DNA of 61,651 bases, filler included. It is 4 parts of 4 records of this genome, joined end to end, with 100 filler letters (N's around TTAATTAATTAA, not from the genome) between each part and the next. Parts side by side here need not be neighbours in the genome. Positions count along the whole stretch, not along the records: positions 45,640 to 50,920 come from SRR2962707_2023; 3 more parts are not named here. One strand, given 5' to 3'. Position 1 is the first letter of the stretch. Every line of letters begins with the position of its first letter. Shown in pieces: positions 29,307 to 61,651 of the stretch. A model generated the notes under the pieces. It searched no databases. It worked only from the letters and a program-made list of their open reading frames with translations, and was not told the DNA's origin. Both the position numbers and the translations under genes were made by a program.

Positions 29307-29406
29307 NNNNNNNNNNNNNNNNNNNNNNNNNNNNNNNNNNNNNNNNNNNNTTAATTAATTAANNNNNNNNNNNNNNNNNNNNNNNNNNNNNNNNNNNNNN
29401 NNNNNN
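29307..29406. other. Artificial contig-joining spacer
   Basis: 44 N + TTAATTAATTAA (stops in all six frames) + 44 N; genes on both sides are truncated. Confidence 0.98.
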
Positions 29407-45539: not shown

Positions 45540-45639
45540 NNNNNNNNNNNNNNNNNNNNNNNNNNNNNNNNNNNNNNNNNNNNTTAATTAATTAANNNNN
45601 NNNNNNNNNNNNNNNNNNNNNNNNNNNNNNNNNNNNNNN
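45540..45639. other. Artificial contig-joining spacer
   Basis: 44 N + TTAATTAATTAA + 44 N. Confidence 0.98.
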
Positions 45640-45781
45640 CTCACTCACACACTCACTCACACACTCACGCTGCCGCTCAGCTCAAAACGTCACTCCATCC
45701 ACTCCGGTCAAACGACTTGCTTTGCTGCGGTCACTCGCTCACTCGCTCGCTTTCCCTCGCTCTCACGCAACTCGCTCGCTT
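45640..45781. repeat. Degenerate (CTCA)n/(CTCG)n microsatellite region
   Basis: ctcactcacacactcactcac and ctcgctcactcgctcgct; similar tract at about 46138-46175. Confidence 0.7.
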
Positions 45782-46556
45782 GCCCTGGGAAGTTGAACTT
45801 GCACCGAAGGAAGGGAAATGGACGCGGCCACGAGAACTTTCGCGGAATGGTTGGAAGGAGCAACCTGGCCGCCCAGAAGGAAAGTGGATCGATGTTGCTG
45901 TTGACAAGCAGGCTCGCTCGCCTTCGCTCACAAGCTGCTCAACTAATCCTCAAGAACGCACGCACGCGCTCCAGCCTGGGGGGCGGTTGTGTGTTGGCTG
46001 TGCTCAGACGCAAAGCAGCACGTTGCGTGGCGATGAAGGAGATTCATGTCGCTGCTTCTGGTTGGCTTGCACAGGGCACTCAACGCTTGGCCACGGCTCA
46101 AACGTGCAACAAGCATACATTGACCACCACCGCCACCCTCACTTACTCACTCACTCACTCATTCAACTCACACACCCGCTCGCCCATTCGCCCAGCTCCA
46201 GCACGTGGTCACGACTGGCTGAAGACTCTGGAACGGTGCGAGAAGTGATCCATCCAAAGCTTGTCCGCTGCTTCTGCTTAGAGAGAGAAGACAATATACC
46301 TGCAACACGCAGAAGAAGTTCTTTGGAAAAAAGGCGTGCAGACCAGCGCCGCGACGGACAGACCGACCGAGTGTCGGTCGTCCTTTGGTTCTCATTGTGA
46401 AGGAACCCACGCCAAAAGATGCAGACTTGAACAACAATATGAACCAACTGGCCAACTAGCCGGCCAGTGCTGGCAGCAGCTAGGTGCGGACAACTCAACT
46501 CGCCGGTCGGCTGGGTCGGGTCGTGCCGTCGGTAAAGCCCACGGCACGACCACAGA

Positions 46557-48479
46557 ATGAAATCAGATTTCCTTCGACTTTATGAGACGAATGTCGCAAC
46601 AAAGCTCATTGCCCCTGAGCTGCGCATGTTGCAGCTCATTGCGTTGAGTGTGATCATGGTGTACTGGGTCGTCCGGCTTTTGACGCTCCACGAACTGTTT
46701 GTCATCGAAGCAGCGTCTGGTAGCTACACGGTGTGGTTGACGGAGCCCGAGGAGTTTGTCTCGTCACAGTGCGAGGAACTTGCTGAAAGCTCTGTCGTTC
46801 CGGCACTCGGGGCATGCCTCTACCCTGACTTGCTGTCCGACGAGGACTTGGAGACCTGCACAGCCATGGCTCTTCTTGGAGCCCCTTTCATTGGCGCAGC
46901 CGAGGACTGTCAGGAATTTGATCCTTTATTGCACGCAAAGGTTAGCCACGAGGAGATTTTTGTTACCACAAATTTGGGTGTTTCGCAGTTCGAGTGCGAT
47001 GCCTCCAACGCCGCGACTTGCAGTCGAACCGCTTCAAATCCTAACTATCCCGCACTGCGGTCTCCAGCGCTCGATCCGAACGCGACGTGGACGCTGGTCG
47101 CTGGTACTGGAGCTGCACGCGTGAACTTGTTTTACTCGTTTGCGAGCGTGTCCTTGAATGCCGGGTACATGCGCGGTGTGGAACCACGGTTTGAAACTGT
47201 GGACGGCGAGTTCATCGAGTTCCGGGATTTTGTACAGCCGGATGCCGTTGACCATTTTGAGACGTATGGTGTTGTGTCGCTCACTCTGGATGAGTTGCGT
47301 TTCCTTGCCAATGTTAGCATGGATGATGTTCTATTCAACACAACGGTCGGAGAAGTCCCGCACCGTCAAATGGGCGCCAACCTTCGCATTGACGTGCATG
47401 CCACCAACATGCTGCTGTGGAATGTGGGGGAGAACAAGCAGGTCACGATTCGGGTGTCCCGTCACGATCGCCAGTCAGGGTTTTTGCATCCAGAAGTGCG
47501 TTGGGATGATGCAGCCATGCGTTCAGGAGAGCTCATCATGAACTATGGGACGCGTATTCAAGCGGCTGTTGGCGGCGACTTTTACGTCTTCGATCCTGGC
47601 TTCCGGGTGCTAGTCATTGTCATGGCCACGGACGTCATGATCCAACTGGCTACTGTCATCGTGGACATCATTGCCATGGCGCTGTGCACGGCACAATTCA
47701 AGAAACGTTTCTTGAGGCTGAAGTACTATAAGGCCCCTTCGTATAGCGAGCTCACTGCAACTCCACGAGCAGGTGGGCGGTCGCCGCAAAATCTGAAGAG
47801 AATTCTCGTGACCCCGCGGTCTGTTGGTGGTGCTGACCGCGACGATGACGATGACTGTCTCGGTGCCCTTAGTCGACGACGCGCTGAGAGCAAAGAAGAA
47901 CCGTCAGATGGAGCTATCGCCATTGCATTGTCGGCTTCTGGGGCGGCAGCTGCAAGTGCCACCAAAGTTGCTGTGTTGGAACGTCGCCTCCTTGGAATGC
48001 AAAGCGCTATGAAGACTGCATTTGAGCGCTTGGAAGCTCGCATGATCATCCATGCAGGAGGAATCGGTCCCACTGAATCCGCCAGCCTTGCATCTGCATC
48101 GGGGCGAACATCTCGTCGACAGGCCAACAGACCCTCTGCAGGGCATCGTGAAAGGCTTCGCCCTGAGCCACTTGACTGGTCGCAGGCAATAGACAGCAAG
48201 ACAGATCCAGATTCTCGTGCCGAGGACGGGTCCGTAGCAAATCAAGATGAATCGGCATCGACCCCACGGCAGGAACAGCACTCCGTGAAACAGCGCCCGC
48301 CGGGCCTCCCCAGTCCTGCTAGCAGTTCAAGCGGCATCAGCGGCAGTGGTGGAGGTGGTGCTGAAGTTGCTCCGGTAGACTCGCGTGGTCATCGACGCAT
48401 TCAACGCCTGCGGCAACACCCGGTCAAACCCAAAGCTCAACTCCGCTCGCCACGCGAAAGTAGCCGCGCAATATTGTGA
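46557..48479 (+). CDS. Divergent P2X receptor-like two-TM cation channel (eukaryotic, no introns needed)
   Basis: N-terminal YET, TM1 (LQLIALSVIMVYWV), ectodomain LDELRFLANVSMDD...RQMGANLRIDVHATN, YGTRI..V.G..F, TM2 LATVIVDII, FLRLKY; long disordered tail. Confidence 0.75.
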   Translation: MKSDFLRLYETNVATKLIAPELRMLQLIALSVIMVYWVVRLLTLHELFVIEAASGSYTVWLTEPEEFVSSQCEELAESSVVPALGACLYPDLLSDEDLETCTAMALLGAPFIGAAEDCQEFDPLLHAKVSHEEIFVTTNLGVSQFECDASNAATCSRTASNPNYPALRSPALDPNATWTLVAGTGAARVNLFYSFASVSLNAGYMRGVEPRFETVDGEFIEFRDFVQPDAVDHFETYGVVSLTLDELRFLANVSMDDVLFNTTVGEVPHRQMGANLRIDVHATNMLLWNVGENKQVTIRVSRHDRQSGFLHPEVRWDDAAMRSGELIMNYGTRIQAAVGGDFYVFDPGFRVLVIVMATDVMIQLATVIVDIIAMALCTAQFKKRFLRLKYYKAPSYSELTATPRAGGRSPQNLKRILVTPRSVGGADRDDDDDCLGALSRRRAESKEEPSDGAIAIALSASGAAAASATKVAVLERRLLGMQSAMKTAFERLEARMIIHAGGIGPTESASLASASGRTSRRQANRPSAGHRERLRPEPLDWSQAIDSKTDPDSRAEDGSVANQDESASTPRQEQHSVKQRPPGLPSPASSSSGISGSGGGGAEVAPVDSRGHRRIQRLRQHPVKPKAQLRSPRESSRAIL

Positions 48480-48967
48480 ACCCTCTGCCAAGCTCCTGGT
48501 CTCGGTACAATGAGTCGTTCGACTTGTAGACCTTGATAGTATCCCAAACTGGATATTTGTCCATGATTTTTATTAATTAGCAACCTCCATCTCACCTCTT
48601 GAACGCCCCATTCCCCTCTGCCAACCCGCGAGTTTTCAAAACGTGAAAAGAAGATTGTGACAATAAATCACAACACGCCACCTCGAAGTGACGCAGTGCC
48701 GGGCTTGGTCTCTCTATCGCGCGCGTGTTTCAAACGTATGGCGTCAGTTCCTTGAAGGCCCCCAACGAACTGCGCGCGCTTCGTGAGCGAGAGACACGAC
48801 GCGCTGCTGTCGGCGACGATCTGCAGCTAGAATATTGGGTGGGTTCCCCATGCTGTCGAAAAAAGAATGAGCTCAGCGTTTTCTCCATGCCGTCGCGGGA
48901 AAATAAGCAAGCGCATGGGTTATCAAATGCGTATACGTTTGGTCACAAATTACTCAACTACCAAAAA

Positions 48968-50893
48968 TCAAAGACAGAGGCGCTTCCGCCGACTGCCTCC
49001 GACAGGTTTGAGCTTCTTTTTCTTCGCTGCACCTTTACCACCCTCTCGAGCGGCTGCAGCAGCCTCGAACGGATTTGTTGCGCTGTCTGCAGCTTCATTA
49101 GCGTCCCCATCCACTGGCAGTACCCCAGTCAAGTACATGTTTTTGGCGGCACTTTTCTTTCCGCTGCCCGCCGCGTCGTCGCCTTCTGCGTTAGCTGCTT
49201 TCGAAGGGTCGTCAAAAAAATCCTCCCCTGTAGGGCATTGCGCCAGCCCGCACCGGCTGGTCAGGTCCCACTTCAATCACTATTCCAAGCGCAAGCAAAA
49301 GTTCACATCGCAATGCATTGAAGAAATAGATATAAGAAATAGATATACCTGCGGCAGCAGCAAGACGCTGCGCCTGCAGAGCAAGAATGGTCTCTTTTTC
49401 TTCTTTCTCTATCCGTCGACGCTCCGCTTTTTCAGCCTGAATCGAAACCCAACACAGCGTTCATCGACGCCCGGCGCAGTACGAAATAGACGAAAAAGGC
49501 TTGATGCACGAGGCCCAAACGAGTGCTGACCTCTTTTTTCGCAGCAATAGCCTCCGCAGCTTTTCTTTTTATTTCCTTCTCTTTCCACACTCGCCGCATT
49601 GTCTTGTTTGGAGGGAAACAGCAGCGGGTGTTGTGATGTTCTCATAAACGCTCAAACGTTGAATGACCAGAGTGAACACCGCGAGTTTAGACAAGCGTGA
49701 ATGACGCACCAGTACTTCTTCATGGCTCAGAATCGTCGACTTGGTGCTGGCATGAATGATGTGATGCAAAAGGTGAGCGGGAATAAACCCATCCAGATTC
49801 CCAGGGCTCAGCACCAACTTTAGCCACCATCAAAACAATCCAACAACACACCAACAACAGCAAAACACCAGTAAACTTCCACTACACATTTCGCTGGGAA
49901 GCACCATTCAGCACAAGAAGCTTTGGCACGCTGTCTTCGAACCTCATTGTCTTCCTTTGTGTCGCCTGTACTCTCAAAGAAACGAATTCCATGCGCAGCA
50001 GCCTCCCGCACATCGACAAAGACCAAAACATTCGGGCCCTTCGTGTGGCCGGGAAGGCACTTCCTGCGCTCTGGCGGCTGTCGAAAGAAGTGGATGTAGG
50101 CTTTGTCCATGCGCGAAAGCCCAACATCGCGGATTTTGTTTATGTGTTGGAAGTGAGTGGCATGCACCACCGTGCCTCCATTTGAATCTATCAGCTCAAG
50201 GTCCGCTTCATTTAACTCTCGCACCGGCAAACATTCATCGACCTTGGGCACATGTGTATGTCGGGAACGGAGGAACAACTCCCCATCTGCGCCACGCTCC
50301 ACCTCCAGGCGCTGCTGTGGATCCAGCCGGGCTGCATTCAAATACTTGATAGGTTCATAGTGGTAGTTTTTGAGCGCCCCACTGTGCAATTCCAAGAGTT
50401 TCGAGAGCGGAACAAAGTCGTCCGGCCGTGCGATGCTGCGCGTCTCCCGCTTCCCGAGCACGAAAAGGTATGCGCGAATTCCTGCTTCGTCAATGCCCAC
50501 AAGCTCCGCTTCGGACAGAAAATGGATTTCAGAGAGGAACCACGAGTCCGGTGACTTGCCAAAAGAGATAACGTCGCGCTTTTTCACGTTCACGGTCACA
50601 TCCGGCGGGAGTTTCTTCCTGTTCAAGTACACCCCGAAAGAAGACTTGTTGTCCCGGATTGTAACGCAGCGCTTGTCCTGGCGCACCGTCACGACCGCGT
50701 GGCGTCGCGATGCAGTCTCATGGGTCAGCACCCACGAGCACAAGTCTGTGTCCCTCCCTACAAGGTGCTTCTTTGCGTTGCCGTTGCCACGCAGCACCAC
50801 TGAAGTTTCCTCAGCCTGCTGCGCGCCACCAGCGCCCTCCTGAACAGACGCGACGACAGACTCTCGCTTGGTGAACTTCACAAAGTCAGACAT
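48968..50893 (-). CDS. Spliced gene: FHA domain + Tpt1/KptA (RNA 2'-phosphotransferase)-like domain + charged tail
   Basis: Hand-spliced exons 50893-49943, 49817-49716, 49602-49531, 49436-49349, 49227-48968, all GT-AG and phase-consistent. FHA: VGR, SRRHA, D..S..G..LN. Tpt1-like: QQRL, VHAT, GLSRM, IHF, GIRF, LVLSPGN.DGFIP. May be 5'-truncated. Confidence 0.8.
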
Positions 50894-50920
50894 TCTCCTA
50901 ATGAACAGCCTAGAAGTATC

Positions 50921-51020
50921 NNNNNNNNNNNNNNNNNNNNNNNNNNNNNNNNNNNNNNNNNNNNTTAATTAATTAANNNNNNNNNNNNNNNNNNNNNNNN
51001 NNNNNNNNNNNNNNNNNNNN
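50921..51020. other. Artificial contig-joining spacer
   Basis: 44 N + TTAATTAATTAA + 44 N. Confidence 0.98.
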
Positions 51021-51024
51021 GAGA

Positions 51025-51049
51025 CTCTCTCTCTCTCTCGAGACTCTCT
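51025..51049. repeat. (CT)n microsatellite at the contig start
   Basis: ctctctctctctctc-gaga-ctctctc. Confidence 0.7.
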
Positions 51050-51414
51050 CAGCTTTTCGTTATTTGCACTTTGCCCTTGCTTCTTTGTTCGTTTTTTTTG
51101 TTTTCTTCCTTTCTTTTCTGTTTTCCTTCTTGTCGCCTTGGTTCTCGCTCCTTGGTTCTTGTGCTGCTGGGTTCTCGCTCCTCGTCTGCTGCTGACAAAC
51201 GAACGACTTCGTTTCGTGCGCGTGGCTCCCCGCACTCACTGTCACTTGCCGCAAGAGGACGCGAGACAGAGAGAACCAAAAAGAGAGCAGAGAGTTGGTT
51301 CGCGAGGTCGCTCAGAGTGTTGGTGCTCCTCCGTTCAATCGAAAGTGAACTACTCAGCGCAAAACAGCAGCAGCAGCAGTACCGCCACCAGTACCAGTAC
51401 CACCACCCAGCAAC

Positions 51415-54400
51415 ATGTCGGACGAGAAGCCCAAGAAGAAGACCATGAAGGTCAAGACTACGAAAGCGACCAAGAAGAGCGACGACGGGAGCTCGCCGAA
51501 GAAGTCGCCGAAGAAGAAGAGCACGAAGACCCCTAAGGCGCGTGGTGTGAAGCTGCGCCCTGCGCCGCTCGTGATGCTTCTTCTGCATTCAAGAATTACC
51601 AACGTCATTTACGGCGCGCTGTATTGCTTGCCACTCCCCCTGCATTTTCACGCTCTTGTGCATTTCATCATCCATTGACCGTCACTTTGTGGGCTGCTGC
51701 CTGTGTTGGTCCCAACTTGCTTGCTTGCGTGGTTGCTTGCTGGCAGACGACGAAAGATGGAGAGACGCCGAAGCTGAAGAAAAAGGTGCGCAAGTCGGAC
51801 CCGGACGCTGCCACGCCACGCACGGGCAGCAAGAAGAAGACGACCTCCAAAGCCAAGTCCACGACTGCAAAGTCGACCAAGGCCAAGTCCACCAAGTCCG
51901 CCGGCGATTCGAAAAAGTCTGCGAGCAAGACTAAAAAGAAAACCAAAGAGTCGTCCAAGGATGGTGCAGCGTCTCCCAAGAAGACGAAAAAGAAGAAGAA
52001 GGATGCGGCGGAGGCTGCCCCGGTCCCTGAAATCCCCAAGGTCGACCCTGCCGTCCAGCGCAAAGCGATCGAGACAGAGATCAAGCGGATTCGGGAGGAC
52101 CTGGCCAAGCAAAAGCGGCTCACGGCCCGCGGTGAGCAGGAGCTTGAAAGTCTGAAGCGCAACTTTTGCATCAAAAAGGCCATGCAGTCGCACATCAACG
52201 ACGCCACTCTGCGCGAGCATGACGAACTCATTGAGGACATGATTGACACCCTTTACGAGTCCGTGAACTTTGCAATCTGCCGCTTTGAAGCCGTGCACTC
52301 CACCCTCTGATGTCGAGCGACTGACATCCGTTGTGCGGCGAACCGCTTTTGTCGGCTTTTGGTTGCGTAGGTACGAGGAGCACATCGAGCAGTTTGAGGT
52401 GCTCGCTGAGTCTTTCGCTGAGAATTTTGAGGATGCCAAGGCTGACTTGGGTTTCGACTTGGAGGCGCAAGGCAAACTTTATGCAGAGCAGGCGCAAATG
52501 CTGCAGGAGTTCGCTGACGACATCACTGAGAGCAAGGAGAAGTAAGTGTTTCTGTGGAATGGTTGCATTTCCTTCTAGCTTTGCACGTGCCTCTCCGCCG
52601 TACCCGACGTCGTGACCGTTCGAGTGTTGAGGTGGCTTGCTGCATTGCTGACCACGCCGTGCCGCGCGCGTTTTGGCCGTCGCCTGTCTCAGATACACGG
52701 AAGAAATTGAAGAAGCACGCAAGCTTCAGAAAAAGCTTGTACGTGAAAACGAGGGTCTCCAAGCGCTTTTGTCGGACGTGCAGTCGTCCCTTGATGGTGG
52801 TGAGGGACTCAACCAACGCCTGTTCGATGAAAACCGCCAACTTGAGAAGGAGGTTTGTGTGACCTACGCATGATTGTGCCACTGGAGTCCCTTGAGGTCG
52901 ATTTTTGTTGGCACTCACCGAACCTGGCCTGTTTGTGGTTTTTGTGGTGCGCAGATCACCGAGCTCCAGGCTCTGTTGGAGCAAGCTGCGGCAACTTTGA
53001 AAAACAAATCACCTGCCAAGACCAAGAAGGAGGCTGCTCAAGCAAAAGTGAGCCGTGCCTCCTTCGCTATGTCCGCCATGGTCTTGCCTCCGTGTTGCAA
53101 GTACCGATCGAGATAACCATGCTCATCACTGTTTCCCCTGCGTTCAATGCGCACTCAGGCAATTCAAACCCTCCAATCAGACAACACTCGATTGATGAAC
53201 GACATCTCGAAGCTGAAGGAGAAAATGGTGGAGGCTGTTGCGAAGCAAGAAGAGGCACAGGCTGCTTACGAAGCGGCTGGCGGCGGTTCGAAAGAGGACG
53301 AGGTCAGCTGTCAGATCTACGCGCGACCTTGATTTCTTCGTTGTAAGTCCGAGTCATTGTGCCCCACAAATGTACCGGATTTTTTCATGTTTCTGGTGTG
53401 GCAGGAGGAGATGCACCGCATGAAGCAGATGAAGAACGAGGTGAAGGAGCTGCAGAAGATGATGAAGGATGTCGACAAAAAGCTCGCAAAGGCAAAGATC
53501 CCCAAACGCAAATCCGAAGTTGCCGAGATGAAGGAATTGGAAGCACGCGGCAAGAAGCTGACGGTTCGATACCTTCAAGCTTCTCGAGGCTTACCTACCT
53601 GTATTCTGCGCTGTTACCAGTTTTTTTTGTGGCTGTCCATCAATCACACCAACCGCGTCTTTCGTTGCCAGGCTGAGCTGAAGAAGGCACGCGCAGAGAA
53701 GAAAACGCTCGCAGTCCCGCAAAAACTGCCTGATCCATCAGAACAGGCAGAGCCCGACCCCGCAAAGATTGCCGAGCTTGAGCGCGAGGCAGCCGAGTTG
53801 GAAAGTGCCGTTGCAGCTGCAAAGGCTGAGGCTGAGGAAATGGCGTCAGCTGCTGAAGCTGAGACAACACCCGGCGACGGGTGCGTCAACACTTCTTTTT
53901 TTGAACGGGACCCATGTGTGCTGTGTTGCAAGTGCTAAACTGCCGTTTCCTGAACCCACCCTCAACCGGTCTGGCGTGTGTGTGAACGGCAGGCCTACCA
54001 TGCAAGATCTGCGCAACTTGGCAGAAGAGATTCAGGCCGGAGATGCGGAGGTTGAGGAAAAGAAGAAGCAAATCAAGCGCATTGAAAAAGAGATGGTTCG
54101 TTTTGCATGTGCCTCCGCGCCCCAGCTCTGGGTCCTTCCACGATGACTACTGGAGGGTGATGGTGGAGAGTAAATCGGGCCGATTCCCTTTGCTCAATTT
54201 GCCGTTTCCGCCATTGGATGCTGTTTGCGCAGGCCGAGTCGAAGGCCGAAGGTGGAAGCATCGACGACAAGCTCAAGAAAATCAGAAAAGCCATCAAAGC
54301 AGTTCAAAAGGACCTGGCTGGCGTGGAAAAAGAGGCCCAAAAGCAAGAGGCGCGCAACCAAGACAAACTCAAAAAGGCCCGCAAAAAGTACGGCGGGGTT

Positions 54401-56436
54401 GGCAAGGTAAATATCGCATGGCAACTGCTCTGCGTTGGCTTTTGTTGATGACCAAACGTCTCGAGAAACGCTGACACGATGTGTTGTTGCGCTCGCCAGA
54501 CTGCCAAGCGCGTTTCGGATGCTTTCAAAAAGCTTTCTCAGTCAACACGTGCGCTGGCTGGCGATGTTCGCGAGATTTTCGAGAACAACCTTCCCTTCAT
54601 CACCAAGAAGATGGAGCGGCTTGTGCACTTGGTCAATACCAGTGGTGAAGACAGCAACAAAGCCATCGCAAAGTACAACAAAGAGTTCATGCTTCGCAAG
54701 GTGCGTGCTTTCGTCACGTCTTGGCTCGGTGCCATAGCTCTGTGGGCGGATCTACGCGCTTTGTTTCACCGTCGAGTTCAGTTCATTGTCGACAAGCCGC
54801 CCGTTGGTGCCCACAACCCCACAAGCTTTGCGTTGACCTGATTTATTGATTGTGCAGGGCTTCCACAACAAGCTTCAGGAGCTTCGTGGCAACATTCGAG
54901 TCTTTGCGCGATGCCGTCCCATTTTGCCTTTCGAGAAAAAGCGCGGCGCCACTGTGTACGTGAGCTCAGTTTCCATCGATGTTCGCTGCTTCTGACTGTA
55001 ATGTTCTTGTCAAGGCTCATTATGTCTGGGCCGTGCACGACCTGAATGCAGTTGCGTGGAGTTCCCGATGCCGGACACCCTCCAGGTTCGCGACGAGAAG
55101 CGCAACACTACCAATACGTGGGAGTTCGACAAGGTATTCAAGCCCGGCTCTGAGAACATGGATGTATTCAAAGAGATCTCCCCACTTGTCACGTCGATCT
55201 TGGATGGCTACAACGTCTGCATTTTCGCGTACGTCGGCCTTGTGCGCACTTGTGCGCATGCTGGAGTGGTTCTGCGCGCAGCCAATTTGGCACAACTCAC
55301 ATGGCATTGTCTGATCGATTTTTCTGTCACAAACTTCCAGGTACGGGCAGACTGGAGCTGGCAAGACCTATACCATGGAGGGTAAAGGAGAAGACAAAGG
55401 TTTGAATTGGCGCACTCTTGACACCCTCTTCGCACTTAAGGAAAAGCGCGCAAAGCAGGTACGCACGCCTCGACAATTACACATGTGACTGGACTGTAAC
55501 TCAAGTCTTTCGCCTCATCTGACGCCTTTGTGCACTGGACTTCTGCGCCAGTTCAAAATTGACATTCTCATGTCGTTCCTTGAGATTTACAACGAAGAGA
55601 TCAAGGACTTACTCAATGCAAAGAAGAAGGGTGGCGCCAAGCTGAAAGTAAAGATGCTGAAGGGAGGCGGCAACGAAATCCCTGGTCTGGTGCAGAAGCC
55701 GGTCAACACCGTGGCCGATCTGGATGCATACGTCGAGGAAGGCAAGAAACGCAGAACCTGCAAAAAGACTAAGATGAACGATTCATCCTCGCGCTCCCAC
55801 GCCGTGCTCTCTATTTATTGCACGTGCCTCAACAAGGTCGGCAGCACAGCTGATTTGTAGCGTACTTTTGTTCAAGATGGAGTCGTTCGTGATGCTCACA
55901 TGCCTTTACGCTGGTACATTGGGTCTTATGCGGCACAGATGTCCAAGAAAGTAATGAATGGAAAGCTTCACTTGATCGACCTTGCTGGTTCCGAGCGCCT
56001 GGACAAGAGTGGTGCGACTGGCCAAGCTCTCAAGGAGGTGCGTTGGCCCTGTCTTTCCGAATTTCGTTTGCCGTTGTTCAATTGTGTCGGCCCCGCAAGG
56101 TGCCATTGTGCGCGGGGTTCCGATTGCACTCATAGATTCCACTTCGTGGCGGTGCGTGGGCAGGCCATTCATATCAACAAGTCGCTGTCTGCCTTGGGCG
56201 ACGTCATTGCTGCTCGAGCCAACAAGTCCGGCCATTGCCCGTACCGAAACAGTGCCCTAACGCACGTGCTGGAGGACTCTCTCGCTGGCGATTCGAAAAC
56301 GTTGATGCTTTCGCAAATTTCCCCGGCTACCGACAATGCACAAGAAAGTGCATGCACTTTGCGCTTCGCTTCACGTGTGCGCAAGGTGGAGCTTGGCCGT
56401 GCCTCAGCTCATGGTGAGGGCGGAGGGGAGAAGTGA
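51415..56436 (+). CDS. Kinesin-14 (C-terminal motor, KIFC/Ncd/Kar3-like), 17 exons
   Basis: Exons 51415-51537 (or 51546), 51747-52258, 52371-52541, 52693-52852, 52955-53047, 53159-53302, 53405-53563, 53672-53880, 53993-54095, 54233-54406, 54500-54700, 54858-54955, 55052-55228, 55341-55458, 55552-55836, 55939-56037, 56164-56436. Lys-rich tail, coiled coil, neck [42 protein letters not shown]. Confidence 0.93.
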
Positions 56437-56621
56437 TGTACGCTTACCCGATGATGCCGAGCCCTCGCGTTGTGGCTCTTCGCCATAAACTGGGTGGCGA
56501 GATGAGTAGTAGAGCCATGGCATTTTAATTTTAACTACTTGAACGAAAAAAATGAAATCCTTGTTTTCTTTCTGTACCCAGTGCGGTGAAAAGCGCGGCG
56601 AAAAGCGTTTTTGCCGCCGTA

Positions 56622-59600
56622 TCAGAGAGGCTCCGTGGCCCAGAAGTGGTTTTCGTGCAGAAGCATGCGCAACATCGGCAGGGGAGTATCCGTGCGGTGG
56701 CCGGGATGTGCGACTGACACCTCTTGCGGAGAATAGACGTCAGTCCATACGCCACCATCTGAGATCGAAGTCAGTTCAATGCGCACATGGAATAAATCTG
56801 CTGCAGCTGCGACTTCTTGAGCGCCCGCCCAGCTCCCAGGCTGTCGCATGTTGCTGAGGTATTCAGCGAACTCTTGACGGGGTGTGCCTGCAGTGCAGCG
56901 GTCACACAAACGCAAGTCAAGACATCCATTACACGTGACCTTGGGCGATAAATGAGAACTACAAAGAGTGTTGAAAAACTTGCCCAGCCCAAATATACTG
57001 TGAAACCTTTCCATGTGCGCGACAACGTCCTGGCGTGCCTGCATCGCAGCCCGAGGTCGCATGCCCGCCGCATTTCGAACAGTCTGCGTAAAAAAAAACA
57101 AAAAAAACAAACAGCATTGCGGAAACCGTGTCCAACATACGTCAATGACCGATGAGCAGGCATCGGCAAGACCCGCACGGCGCGTAAGCTCGTTCAAACA
57201 CGGTAGCGGGAACATGCCTGCGTCGAGAAGTCGTATGGTGCACCTTTTTCCACGGTCTCACGGCCGCTGGAAACTGCAGGGGGTGTTGATACCTTGTGCT
57301 GAACCAACTGATCTGCAAGTGCAAGAAAAAAACAATTTCCATCTGGGGCGATGGGCCTGCATGCGAATTTGTGCACATGTGAACAACTATGTATCACAGA
57401 AGACGAAAACTCGGGACCCATGGAGGCTTGACGAAAATTTCATTCCGAAAAGTTGACGCTTACGAACCTCGGTCGCAGCCCAAGTTGGGCAAGTTGTGCC
57501 CGAACTGACGCAAAGTGGCATTCGATCCCACTGCAACAAGACGCGTTGTGTGGTACTTCTGCCGCTGGTTTCACAAGATCTTCCCTCGCACCAGGAACTG
57601 AGTCCAACGCCACAACTAAGTGCATTGGTGTCTTGAAATCAAAAGCGAGACCACTTTCAAAAGTCGCCAAGAAAACCGACTCGAGGTTCTTCGCAAACGC
57701 AGAAGTATCCCAGTATGATGTGCCGTCTGTCGAACGGTCCCCACTGAATGTCTCTCGTCCAGGAGGCTGTGTATTTGTGCTCAGTGTGAGAGTTGCGTCC
57801 ACATCTTCCCACTCATCGTCATCCCAATCGTCTTCTTCAAAAGTACCCTCCTGCTGATTGGCTGGACCACCTACACTCGGGGCGGTCGCGTCGATTTTCT
57901 CTTGGTCGGAACCCACATCCGACCCCACATTGAGTGTGTTTGCTTTTGCGAACAGCCAGCGGTCACAGGAAGCCGCAATCATTGCCTAGCAGTACACAGC
58001 AGGTTGTAAAGGAGCTGCAGCCGCGACCACACACAAGGCTCGAAATTCAGGAAGAGATCTTCCTCAAAAAACAACAAAAAACAAAAACAAAAAAACACGC
58101 ACTGCGACGCTGCTGCGCCGTGAAACAATCGTTCCAAACTGAACGGCAATATCTTCATAATCTTTCCAGCTTACAGAAACACCAACAGCTGCCCAATTTG
58201 GCCTGCCAAGTCCAGAAGTAATGCCGCTTAAAATCGACCTTGCTACCCGTCCTCCCATGTGCTGATTGTGCAAGAACGTGACAAGGGGAACCTGTATATC
58301 GCACAAACACTTCGGCAAGTTACGAATCGGCAAGCATTTTCTACGATTGGCAAACGATTTACACTAAAGCGCAAGCCTCGCAGTGTTGCACAATACAAGT
58401 TGTCCTTACCCCACCCCAGAAGGCGTCCACAGCCCCAGTGTGGGCGTTGTAGGTTGGGGTGTCTAACACCACATCGCAGGAACAACTATAGCGACGTTGA
58501 TGGTCGAAAGGAGAGGCCACAAATGGGAGAAACACCAATCTATGCGGGGCAATGCCGCGCGCTGCGGCAAAAGCAACCGCATTTGGAATTGAGTCTCCAG
58601 GATTCTTTAATCATACCGATAGAACGAATTCAAAAATCATGCCAAAATTATTTGCGGAGAAGCCCCGCATGGCATGTCGTGTATTGGCTTCGTCGTTTCG
58701 AGCAGGTCTGTTAGTACGTACCATCAACAGCAGCAACCGACTGTTTGGCACTCGTGACAATATATTGAGCCACACATGAAACGTGGTGGGTGAGATCTTT
58801 AGATGCTTGTTGAAGCAACAGAAGTGGACCGCTTGATTGGACCGTGCATACATAGCACCCGAACAAACAGCCTGCCACGCATTCACACACGTCAAGTCAT
58901 AACAAGCGGGGTTGTCAACTGATGTGACGAGTTCAGTGACGTGTACAAAGACCACTCCGCGTGGCCAAGCAAGTCCAGAACCTACTTTAGACGGAGGCTC
59001 CATCAGGGCAGCGTGACTATTCACAAAAAAAGATGATGGCAACTACAAAGTGCAAACGTTGAACAACGTGTGTAAGGCATCACCACCCACAAAATGCTTT
59101 GCTACTGAGCAGGCACATGAGGCAGCCCGTACCAAGGCCAATTTTTCGCTGTGCCCCGAGCGTAACTCGGCTGGAGTAACAACTCGATCAGAAATAATGT
59201 GCGAAATCCAAGGCGCGCCCGTGGTGCCCACATAAACTAGGTATGCCATCTGCAAAAGGGGGAAATCGCAAGACGGATGCAGGTGCCCGATCCCAACAAG
59301 CAGTAAAGCGAAGACATCAAAGATATAGCTCTCGCGCAACCAAACAGCGATTGCTGGCCACCAATAGCAGACACACCTGAATTGGCGCTACACGTAAACT
59401 AAACAGCCCATCCAATCGCACTCCCTCATTGCTATAGCCATCCATGTCAACCGCAACATGCAGTTTCAATGTAGTGCGAAGATAGCTCGCCACTTCATGA
59501 ACATCTTTCCTGGAATTTTCAGCAACGCGACAGAATTTGCATCAAGTGTTGTGGGTTACTCCCAACACACCGAAAGGCGGCAATGTATGTCGAGTATACC

Positions 59601-61605
59601 GCGGGCACGACGCACCCGCTGACATCTACAAAGTGTTCACAGCCGTGGCGAATCCTGCGTCTCCACTCAAAATCACCCAAGGTGCTTCCACGCGGTGAAG
59701 GTGCATCACGCTTGAGCTGGAGCTTGTCGTCGGCCGAATCAGGCGTCGTAGCAATGCAAAACAACTCAATGCGGTTTCTGTCATGGTGCGTATATCTGCA
59801 AGAAAGCGTGTGGGTGAAAAAATTAGCTCCAAGTTCCTGTGAATTTGGTTGATAGTTCACAGGTCACTTGCAGGCCATGAACATCACTTACAAGTCATAA
59901 ACAAGATAAGCTGTCGCTTTCAGCCGAAAGTCGGCGCTTACAAGCCCGACTCGAATACGCTCCGATTTTTTGTGGCCGGGAGGGCCAGACTTTTGGCGCC
60001 CACGTAGCAGTGACGATTGAACCGGTGGAGGCAATGCATCTGCAGAGTTGCCCAAAACCTTGGAACGAGATTTCAGTGCCGCCGCTTTCGCAATTTGAAG
60101 TTTGAGTCTGGCGCACCACACATTTTTTGCACGAACATGGAGCATGGAAAATTCAAGCAAGTCATGCCTTATCAGCCATGTTCCTTGCGTCAGGTACGCA
60201 CCCTGGATCCATGTCATAGTGTAATGTCATGTGCGGCTGCACAATGCTTGTTTCCCGGACCGACGGACACTGGAGCGCGCTTTCGAGGGCGTGTGTGATA
60301 CGGTAAAGCTTGTCCCACTCCATAATCGTTGTCTTGAGGTATCTGAACGACGAACACCAACACGATGCGATAAAGCGAGTGTTTTTTCGCAACCCCAATG
60401 AAACTCGACGAGCTGATCGCCTAACGATCCATCCCACAACGTTGTGCAGGGAAGAGCAACCCCGCGAGATTACAAACGTACACGTGAGTGGAAAGGCATT
60501 GGACTAAAGCCACATTCTCCGCAATAAAAGAGCAATTTTCGAACAGTGACAAGTCTGCGACATTGTTGAACACACACTCTCCTTCGGAGCCAACAGTTAC
60601 GGACAACAGCAGCACCAACACGAACAGGACGGCAATGGAAGGTGAATTATGCGCCAGATGGGTTGGCGAGCCGAGCGGCAAAAGAATTTCCGAATCAAAC
60701 GTTTTCAACGGACCAAAACTTTCCGACGCGTTGCTCCATTGCTTGACGTTGAAGAAAATTGCTCCTAGCGCGGCGAGACACTCAATACAGGTGCCGTTCG
60801 ATACTTGCACGGAGTGTTGGAGCGTGCGAATACGAAGCATCAAACGCAATTGCTCTTGCTCTTCCGCATCTTCAGTGCCGCCACCGGTGCTCCACATCGG
60901 GTCGACTGCTTCAATTTGCTCCAGCAGCAGGTAGGCGTGGGGCTCGTTCGGGTTCAATTCAATTGCTAATCCAACATGCCGCCTGGCAGACATGAACTGC
61001 CCCTGTCGAACGTACGCAGCCGCAACAGCCAGGTGAGCTTGCTCCGGGATACCCTGCAGTTCATAGCAGCGGACAAACAGCGCGAAGCAGGCGCCAGGGT
61101 CTGGATGGCTCCCATGAGTCATGGCCTTCCAAAACAGTACGGACGCTGCAGCCAGATCGCCCGCTGTCATAAGCCCCTTTGCTTCCTCAAACAGCAGCAG
61201 CGCCTCCTCCTGCCGCGTCGGCGACGGCAGCTCGCTCACTTCTGCGGCGGCCACTGCCACTGCCACTGCCACTGCCTCAGCCTCAGCCTCAGCCTCCACT
61301 TCCGAGTCTGCTGCTCGAGGCTGTTGCAGCCCAGCGACCACGCCCAGTGAGGCTGAAATTGGAGCAGCGAATGCCAAGCTGCTGCAGCAGCCGCCACCGA
61401 GGGGCAACTTGAACGCGCGCACGAGCAGCACAGGACCCAGAGCGACGAAGCAGCCCACGAGAAAGAGCGTGGCAGCTCCTAGGTTCCTCCTCCTCCTGCT
61501 GCTACCAGTGGTGGTGGTGGTTCTTCTGCTTCTTCGCGCACCTCTGCGCGCCCTGAACCCAGTCGGTGCCATGGCTGAGATTTGGGGGACTGTTGACGCT
61601 GTCAT
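56622..61605 (-). CDS. Spliced gene: hydrophobic N-terminal anchor + TPRs + GT41 O-GlcNAc-transferase-like domain + C-terminal OTU deubiquitinase domain
   Basis: Exons 61605-60714, 60581-60482, 60342-60202, 60107-59892, 59795-59616, 59509-59377, 59249-59133, 59042-58722, 58604-58410, 58291-58103, 57985-57468, 57356-57293, 57083-56622; all GT-AG and phase-consistent, extra in-frame introns possible. GT41: RIRVGLVSADF, VDMDGYS, APIQMAYLVYVGTTG, FNKHLKI, LDTPTYNAHT, VPLVT, GRVARS, WDTSAFAKNLE. OTU: PDGNCFF, WAGAQEVAAAA, NHF. Confidence 0.78.
61250..61297. repeat. Coding hexamer repeats (GCCACT)n then (GCCTCA)n, encoding an EA/VA linker
   Basis: Tandem units seen directly; translate to EAEAEAEAVAVAVAVA on the minus strand. 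Confidence 0.8.
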
Positions 61606-61626
61606 TCAGAATCGCAGCACATGCCG

Positions 61627-61651
61627 AAAAAAAAAAAAAAAAAAAAAAAAA
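61627..61651. repeat. Poly(A) run at the window end
   Basis: 25 consecutive A. Confidence 0.85.

Follow-up and report, generated by a model that had tools for sequence, protein, structure and literature searches.

The window analysed here, a stretch of 61,651 nucleotides (nt), consists of four contigs joined end to end and separated by three identical linkers (N44-TTAATTAATTAA-N44) at 29307-29406, 45540-45639 and 50921-51020. On a 5.3-kb segment of its own (45640-50920) lies a gene whose predicted product carries an N-terminal FHA domain and a two-lobed domain derived from the RNA 2'-phosphotransferase Tpt1/KptA/TRPT1, in which most of the catalytic residues have been replaced. The gene is read on the minus strand from the start codon at 50893 to the stop codon at 48968, and its five exons encode 492 amino acids (aa; Table 1). 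The introns of 125, 107, 94 and 121 nt all have GT..AG borders, and the spliced coding sequence of 1479 nt has a single, terminal stop. This exon model was derived from three reading frames, the GT..AG borders and the C-terminal sequences of the family. An uninterrupted 357-aa open reading frame (ORF) on the same strand, running from 50893, contains both domains. The ATG at this position is the start codon, since close homologues begin with the same residues. A six-frame scan of the window gave one Tpt1 and one FHA match, both in this gene.

A 4195-nt contig of X1, the one public run found to contain the stretch, covers all five exons with no other letter. The stretches absent from it measure exactly 121, 94, 107 and 125 bases in turn, each bounded by CT..AC on the plus strand, which corresponds to GT..AG on the gene strand. 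The X1 contig also reaches past the end of the window's contig. The run contains 0.73 of the sampled words, the exons making up 1479 of the 2021 bases searched; its RNA nature is a guess, and the depth of the contig is uninformative on expression level. The X1 contig is an intron-less copy of the gene, most simply explained by a messenger RNA. The FHA and Tpt1-like domains, which an earlier note on this DNA had read as fused, indeed belong to one polypeptide: exon 1 encodes the FHA domain together with the greater part of the Tpt1-like domain, with neither intron nor stop between them, and the remainder is present in the spliced form. Two further features pointed out in the same note, a charged helix and a basic end, are real coding sequence according to the exon model and the X1 joints, the helix in exons 3 and 4 and the end in exon 5.

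Table 1. Features of the FHA-Tpt1 gene and its contig end, in positions of the window
Feature	Position	Strand	Evidence and remarks
Exon 1, 317 aa, FHA and most of the Tpt1-like domain	49943..50893	-	donor GT at 49942; X1 joint 49817/49943
Exon 2, 36 aa, last C-lobe strands and conserved segment after them	49710..49817	-	alignment with canonical Tpt1 and family; X1 joints
Exon 3, 24 aa, charged helical region begins	49531..49602	-	X1 joints 49435/49530 (cut +1) and 49602/49710; family alignment
Exon 4, 88 nt, Lys/Glu/Arg-rich helix, ends in phase 1	49349..49436	-	exon model, family alignment, X1 joints
Exon 5 with stop codon, N-M-Y-L motif, Ala/acidic stretch, basic end	48968..49227	-	exon model, family alignment
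FHA core, residues 40-124	50522..50776	-	Pfam match 44-112, PDB profile matches, fold comparison
Tpt1-like N lobe (winged helix), residues 136-222	50228..50488	-	Gly147-Lys148 for Arg-His, Arg195 kept; alignments, VIA
Tpt1-like C lobe (NAD+ lobe), exon-1 part, residues 223-317	49943..50227	-	alignments, VIA
Assembly linker N44-TTAATTAATTAA-N44	50921..51020	.	ends the 5.3-kb contig, 27 bases upstream of the FHA-Tpt1 start codon

The Tpt1-like domain, as proposed in the earlier note, is recognised both by sequence profile and by fold. It matches the Pfam family PF01885 (PTS_2-RNA) with an E value of 2.9e-14 (53.9 bits, cut-off 26) over residues 156-309 and profile positions 26-169 of 177, and the strands encoded by exon 2 align with the canonical 'VILSPG..G.IP'. 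A profile of the family, built from 14 sequences, retrieves mouse TRPT1 (7yw2, E 3e-27), human TRPT1 (3.7e-27) and yeast Tpt1 (4.3e-16), and the archaeal and bacterial Tpt1 enzymes at about 1e-10 to 1e-7. The module is of the eukaryotic type, being a far better match to mouse and human TRPT1 than to the archaeal and bacterial enzymes. Whole-protein structure searches were filled by FHA matches, and the Tpt1 part was searched with a model of the domain alone (residues 125-317; predicted local distance difference test, pLDDT, 89.0; predicted template modelling score, pTM, 0.65). With this model, Foldseek ranks 1-21 are all Tpt1, TRPT1 or KptA (best E 8.7e-06, probability 1.00), and VIA aligns it to 7yw2 with a Z score of 8.3 over 151 residues. 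Taken singly, the C lobe matches the nicotinamide adenine dinucleotide (NAD+) lobe of yeast Tpt1 (7yw4) with Z 5.5 and a root-mean-square deviation (rmsd) of 2.3 A over 74 residues, and the N lobe matches La-motif winged helices with Z 6.8 and an rmsd of 3.3 A over 84 residues. The predicted structure thus supports a Tpt1-like fold for each lobe, one winged-helix and the other ADP-ribosyltransferase-like.

The essential tetrad of Tpt1 is reported to be Arg18-His19-Arg68-Arg121 in CthTpt1, R14-H15-R63-R116 in ApeTpt1 and R23-H24-R71-R138 in yeast. The HGT motif of CthTpt1 corresponds to His101-Gly102-Thr103, and the Arg of its SGxR motif, Arg139, is described as caging the NAD+ phosphates together with Arg121 and Arg140 (PMC6333775, PMC10622864, PMC6097658). 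The backbone of the Gly of HGT is reported to hold the nicotinamide amide of NAD+. By this numbering, the fourth tetrad Arg follows the His of HGT at a distance of 20 residues and lies in the SRxHIH motif. Residues were assigned from a MAFFT alignment of 14 FHA-fused and 17 canonical Tpt1 sequences, and R-H-R-R, HGT and SGxR are present in all 17 of the latter. In the N lobe of the window protein, Gly147 and Lys148 occupy the positions of Arg18 and His19, Gln193 that of Lys66, and Arg195 is the retained equivalent of Arg68; QGHS is represented by His212-Thr213-His214-Val215. Among the NAD+ contacts of the C lobe, HGT has become His244-Ala245-Thr246, with only the Gly exchanged, and Ile254 and Gly258 are the retained equivalents of Ile111 and Gly115. 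Lys264 stands in place of Arg121. Tyr266 replaces the first His of HIH, the second being kept as His268, and SGxR is replaced by Pro281-Gly282-His283-Thr284, followed by Lys285 at the position of Arg140.

The tetrad of the window protein consequently reads G-K-R-K (Gly147-Lys148-Arg195-Lys264) instead of R-H-R-R, with one residue of four kept. The counterpart of SRxHIH is MDKAYIH, and the assignment of Lys264 is firm because no gap interrupts the alignment from the conserved GLSRM to IHF. A HMMER profile alignment to TRPT1 gives the same residue pairings. The pairings made by eye in the earlier note (LRH with LGK, KQRF with QQRL, SGMR with PGHT, QGHS with HTHV and HGT with HAT) were all recovered, as was its count of three substituted tetrad residues, and the proper alignment did not restore an intact tetrad. 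However, the note had placed the fourth tetrad Arg on SGMR. The site reported in the literature lies in SRxHIH (CthTpt1 Arg121, yeast Arg138) and is Lys264 here; the SGMR Arg (CthTpt1 Arg139) is replaced as well, by Thr284. Compared with canonical Tpt1, the protein keeps an RPDG[FY]V-like motif, the Arg of 'IRA', the third tetrad Arg (QQRL), the His and Thr of HGT, the second His of HIH and the C-terminal 'VLSPGN..G.IP' strands. To these it adds the N-terminal FHA domain and a charged C-terminal extension of roughly 140 residues.

The consequences for catalysis can be gauged from mutants of related enzymes. Mouse and human TRPT1 mutants in which the first Arg, the His or the fourth Arg is changed to alanine are reported to lose RNA 2'-phosphotransferase function, to no longer complement yeast and to lose nucleic-acid ADP-ribosylation 'completely', the Arg-His pair being described as dispensable for NAD+ binding. 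For the fission yeast enzyme SpTpt1, the reported decrease is 1500-fold for R50A and 39-fold for R50K. The window protein, in which the Arg-His pair has become Gly-Lys and the fourth Arg a Lys, is expected to carry out both known Tpt1 reactions very poorly. The earlier description of a probable pseudoenzyme is fair for these reactions, given that the catalytic residues are mostly gone and that the corresponding TRPT1 alanine mutants are reported to be inactive.

The FHA domain is equally clear. The profile check suggested in the earlier note gives a match to PF00498 with an E value of 1.5e-14 (54.6 bits, cut-off 20.7) over residues 44-112. In the model of exon 1 (mean pLDDT 84.5), the first 126 residues superpose on solved FHA domains, and an N-terminal strand (residues 4-9) is predicted to pack on the FHA core. 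The best VIA match is the FHA domain of CEP170 (4jon; Z 17.3, rmsd 1.6 A over 101 residues); 57 chains match at Z >= 8, and the 50 rows shown are all FHA domains. By sequence, the nearest solved FHA domain is that of NIPP1 (2jpe), with E 7.6e-07 for the single sequence and 3.1e-27 for the family profile. The profile scores NIPP1 at 98.6 bits, kanadaptin at 72.3 (E 2.9e-19), TbPar42 at 72.1, SNIP1 at 63.1 (E 1.8e-16) and DDL at 59.3 (E 2.5e-15), and other FHA domains at no more than 51.7. By sequence and predicted structure, the domain belongs to the NIPP1/kanadaptin/SNIP1-type subfamily with an N-terminal extension strand. G46, S62 and R63 are invariant in the family and R47 is found in 13 of its 14 rows. 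The GR and SRVH residues of NIPP1 have their aligned counterparts in G46-R47 and S62-R63-x-H65, and N91 lies within YLNRK. FHA domains bind phospho-threonine through such Gly-Arg, Ser-x-x-His and Asn residues. We regard the domain as a functional phospho-threonine reader, of the type found in nuclear RNA processing.

NIPP1 (PPP1R8), kanadaptin, SNIP1/Pml1 and DDL share the N-terminal strand and the H.S.SR.HA motif with the window protein and likewise carry other modules and basic stretches after the FHA domain. FHA proteins of this type are nuclear RNA-processing factors; the titles of PDB entries back this role only in part (spliceosome entries for SNIP1). None of them is known to have a Tpt1-like domain. 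No RVxF motif of the kind that binds protein phosphatase 1 (PP1) was seen by eye in the FHA-Tpt1 protein. The overall design, with an N-terminal FHA domain that docks on phospho-peptides and delivers a nucleic-acid-directed or ADP-ribose-binding module, is also that of PNKP, aprataxin and APLF, and the FHA fold superposes on all three (Z 11.5, 12.1 and 13.2, respectively). However, none of them appears among the 56 PDB sequences matched by the family profile at E <= 0.001, which indicates that the window FHA is of another subtype. Unlike the window protein, moreover, the PNKP, aprataxin and APLF enzymes retain their catalytic sites.

Downstream of the Tpt1-like domain, exons 3-5 encode 139 residues, among which Ala (31), Lys (20), Glu (15) and Arg (11) are abundant. 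The full-length relatives have a common order in this region: a charged helix, an N-[PMI]-Y-[LM] motif, an acidic or Ala-rich stretch and a basic end. N-[PMI]-Y-[LM] is aligned in nine of the 11 full-length rows (N-M-Y-L at 436-439 in the window protein) and is PPYY in the other two, and a terminal [RK][RK][RK]R[LIV]x[LIVM] is aligned in seven. The basic end of the window protein comprises KKKKLK (475-480) and RRKRLCL (486-492). This conservation provides independent support for the exon model. The C-terminal motifs would be consistent with nuclear import signals. More speculatively, N-P-Y-L might be an import signal of the PY type; the window protein has Met in place of the Pro of that consensus. 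A PP1-binding RVxF reading of the [RK]R[LIV]x[LIVM] end was rejected, because its final position is not the Phe or Trp of that consensus. Two relatives, P0085 (480 aa) and P0039 (494 aa), differ from the others, where N-P-Y-L stands alone, in that some 45 additional conserved residues with 'PPYYT...GREKQT' separate the charged helix from the basic tail. This insert matched no Pfam family at E <= 0.01.

The window protein is not an isolated fusion. A word-indexed search gave seven hits among 3887 candidates, the window's own product included; the six relatives are 64-84% identical to it and have the same start and the same architecture. An exhaustive search of 1.84 billion representatives returned 281 proteins at E <= 0.001, 14 of them at E <= 1e-10, most being single-domain matches. 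All 11 more distant relatives chosen as spanning both domains have both Pfam domains above the cut-off. In a local classification with hidden Markov models, 27 of 171 proteins, near-duplicates and the window product included, have both domains. Word-indexed searches with the family alignment and with P0011 gave nothing beyond the first search, and the ESM Atlas gave no usable match for the window protein or for P0083. By their sequences, the FHA-Tpt1 proteins form a family of at least 16 distinct members, present among other environmental sequences too, with varied decay of the active site. A full-text literature search, with most subscription journals outside its coverage, found no paper describing a fusion of FHA with Tpt1, KptA or TRPT1. 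The earlier note's statement that no characterised FHA-Tpt1 fusion is known agrees with this, with the qualification that the protein is one of a family and not a one-off. The fission-yeast Tpt1-Yae1 fusion (PMC12810181) likewise joins Tpt1 to an unrelated protein-interaction domain. However, its tetrad is reported to be conserved and its Tpt1 domain catalytically active, and the partner is Yae1 and not FHA.

Decay of the active site differs between members. None of the proteins with an N-terminal FHA domain has R-H-R-R in the tetrad columns. Among the 14 fused rows of the alignment, the first Arg is kept in 8, the His in none, the third Arg in 8 and the fourth Arg in 2, with Lys at the fourth position in 6; the NAD+ contacts His101 and Thr103 are kept in 11 and 8. 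Different tetrad residues have been lost in different lineages, as expected once catalysis is no longer selected. One relative with R-G-L-Q in the tetrad columns was automatically named 'RNA:NAD 2'-phosphotransferase (TPT1/KptA family)' by its source. P0026, an FHA-first protein outside the 14-row table, reads R-H-L-R and has an unaltered HGT and GMR. Like the family at large it carries the N-P-Y-L motif and a basic end, here of KRLRL type, and it retains the Arg-His, fourth Arg, HGT and GMR that are lost or altered in the window protein. The same two domain families are combined in the opposite order, Tpt1-FHA, in P0032 (524 aa) and P0064 (471 aa); unlike the window protein, both have R-H-R-R, HGT and SGMR intact. 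After their FHA domains, these two share a C-terminal segment resembling 'KRKLLWGGK ... RFLALTGAKR'.

A maximum-likelihood tree was built from 35 Tpt1 domains. A branch supported at 99/99 separates the 16 FHA-first proteins from the rest, and P0032 and P0064 fall among the canonical Tpt1 domains, apart from each other. An earlier tree of 31 rows gave 98/97 support for the FHA-first group. Both trees are unrooted, and P0021 and P0080 have long branches. By these trees, the FHA-first Tpt1 fusions are of one origin. Of 98 Tpt1-only domains, 74 have R-H-R-R and the other 24 are gapped in at least one tetrad column, as fragments or partial alignments. In three of these 24 the fourth position is K or N, and the sequences concerned may be pieces of FHA-Tpt1 family members.

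Judged against P0003, the Tpt1 lobes are conserved to about the same degree as the FHA domain. The window protein is identical to P0003 at 63 of 87 and 63 of 88 positions of the two lobes (70 of 85 in the FHA domain), and to P0004 at 55 of 86 and 49 of 87 (69 of 85 in the FHA domain). Over the 14 rows, L146, R156, D158, E197, R209, N252, R255 and G258 of the Tpt1 part are invariant or nearly so. Family-wide invariants such as R209, N252, R255 and G258 differ from the catalytic set, and N252 and R255 are unconserved in canonical Tpt1. Judged from this conservation of the lobes and from invariants outside the catalytic set, the Tpt1 module is under selection while its catalytic residues drift, which is the pattern expected of a pseudoenzyme.

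Some further observations concern individual proteins retrieved in the searches. In P0003 (402 aa, 69% identical), the counterpart of intron 1 is open in frame and the gene call has read through it into exon-2 sequence, as can happen when genes on eukaryotic contigs are called in prokaryote style. P0014 (776 aa), P0017 (466 aa) and P0020 (448 aa) contain two or more canonical Tpt1 domains in tandem, with LRH, KQRF, QGHS, HGT and SG[MF]R intact.

The contigs of the window do not come from one organism. The segments within 1-45539 carry bacterial genes (YdbH-like, amidase, FlgK, CcmH-type tetratricopeptide repeat and periplasmic binding protein), and those within 45640-61651 carry eukaryotic genes, so that two organisms are mixed in the record. 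Since the contigs are concatenated, neighbourhood across the linkers is without meaning. The eukaryotic contig at 51021-61651 contains a Lys-rich ORF in the 51415-52310 region and a kinesin motor in two ORF pieces on the plus strand (55489-55857 and 55861-56433). On its minus strand are a weak OTU protease match (56625-57257) and a fragment of a glycosyltransferase of family 41, OGT-like (58614-59042). On the contig of the FHA-Tpt1 gene itself, and convergent to it, a 640-aa ORF lies on the plus strand at 46557-48479; a Pfam search at E <= 0.001 gave no match for it, and two hydrophobic stretches can be seen by eye. The X1 contig with the spliced FHA-Tpt1 message extends 2574 nt beyond 48900 toward this ORF. 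This may reflect a 3' overlap between the two transcripts or their merging by the assembler.

From the gene structure and its intron-less copy, the identity of the domains, the loss of catalytic residues and the conservation of the family, we infer a loss of activity, a binding role, a partner and a nuclear location. The protein, of a microbial eukaryote, consists of an FHA domain, a two-lobed Tpt1/TRPT1-derived module, a charged helix and a tail. Its FHA domain would dock it onto a phosphorylated nuclear partner. The Tpt1-derived module would have been kept for binding a nucleotide (such as NAD+ or ADP-ribose), RNA or a protein, and would have no role in RNA 2'-phosphotransfer or nucleic-acid ADP-ribosylation. 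The basic tail could serve in nuclear import or in contacts with nucleic acid. It thus seems probable that the protein is a nuclear adaptor docked through phospho-threonine, the Tpt1-derived module of which binds a ligand or partner without Tpt1 chemistry. It is also conceivable, if doubtful, that the module has turned from an enzyme into a reader, which the FHA domain would deliver to a phosphorylated nuclear RNA-processing complex. Such a dead copy could hold a 2'-branched or ADP-ribose-marked nucleic acid or a metabolite derived from NAD+.

Several observations weigh against a purely binding nuclear adaptor. Structural superposition, which the earlier note had named as a check, succeeds on crystal structures only for the two lobes separately, and the fit of the whole domain to Tpt1 crystal structures is poor (template modelling score 0.30-0.40, rmsd 11-12 A). 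The domain-only model is without the exon-2 strands, so that with a pTM of 0.65 its lobe arrangement is not trusted and the cleft is not readable. A different fold, or a real rearrangement of the lobes, was not adopted as a reading of the poor global fit. The nuclear location is drawn from basic motifs recognised by eye and from the FHA subtype, and P0026 suggests that the family may not be uniformly inactive. The clade of the window protein also retains the NAD+-contacting His244, Thr246, Ile254, Gly258 and His268, at positions that touch the adenosine and ribose. In addition, Lys is found at two of the lost Arg positions, 264 and 285, and Lys is reported to substitute in part for Arg in SpTpt1. 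With these retained contacts and charges, the protein may still bind a nucleotide or have a residual or altered NAD+-dependent chemistry.

The same features could be those of an active NAD+-using enzyme with an altered chemistry or acceptor, directed by its FHA domain to the site of action; it might be an NAD+ glycohydrolase, ADP-ribosylate a protein or another nucleic-acid end, or act on a phospho-metabolite. Lys264 and Lys285 would preserve the positive charge of Arg121 and Arg140 in the phosphate cage described for CthTpt1, and archaeal Tpt1 is reported to have NAD+ glycohydrolase and NADP(H) 2'-phosphotransferase side activities. Moreover, P0026, P0032 and P0064 show that an FHA domain can be paired with a seemingly competent Tpt1 site. 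However, such an enzyme appears unlikely here, where Gly147-Lys148 replace a pair whose alanine mutants are reported to lose both known activities, the SGxR donor loop is PGHT and the Gly said to hold nicotinamide is Ala. In addition, the NAD+ contacts drift family-wide, which argues against a conserved NAD+-dependent reaction. Still less plausible, indeed very improbable, is an ordinary tRNA-splicing 2'-phosphotransferase with a regulatory FHA domain. The PF01885 score above the gathering threshold and the automatic name of one relative would fit it. Nevertheless, a single tetrad residue is kept where all 17 canonical sequences have four, R-H-R-R is the rule among ungapped Tpt1-only domains, and the 99/99 branch sets the FHA-fused group apart from canonical Tpt1.

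The mixed origin of the concatenated contigs and the position of the gene start only 27 bases from a contig end could raise the suspicion that the gene is an assembly chimera, a wrongly joined reading frame or a pseudogene in decay. An artefact of this kind is scarcely credible, since both domains lie in one uninterrupted ORF within one contig and the independent run X1 holds the spliced form without a mismatch and beyond the contig end. The start and architecture shared with the close relatives and the presence of both Pfam domains in all of the more distant ones also speak against it. Furthermore, the five-exon reading has its only stop at the end and yields a C-terminus that aligns with the family. 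The adaptor docked through phospho-threonine is the reading preferred here.

Tpt1/KptA/TRPT1 proteins are reported from all domains of life, and the literature consulted describes their role beyond fungal and plant tRNA splicing as an open question. The relative with R-G-L-Q in its tetrad columns is a warning for annotation, as automatic naming has made it a 2'-phosphotransferase. The graded series formed by the intact proteins of reversed order, the near-intact form and the strongly degenerate forms constitutes a natural set for studying the passage from enzyme to pseudoenzyme. If the proposal of a reader were true, the module would be the first 'Tpt1-fold reader' without catalytic activity and would connect phospho-threonine signalling with ADP-ribose or 2'-phosphate marks on nucleic acids; P0026, together with P0032 and P0064, would then document how a targeted enzyme became a targeted reader. 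A conserved eukaryotic lineage in which the Tpt1 fold has been kept, the tetrad lost and the module tied to a phospho-threonine reader points to a second, non-catalytic use of this fold. The partner of the FHA domain and the ligand of the dead site would provide a handle on what Tpt1-like proteins sense in cells.

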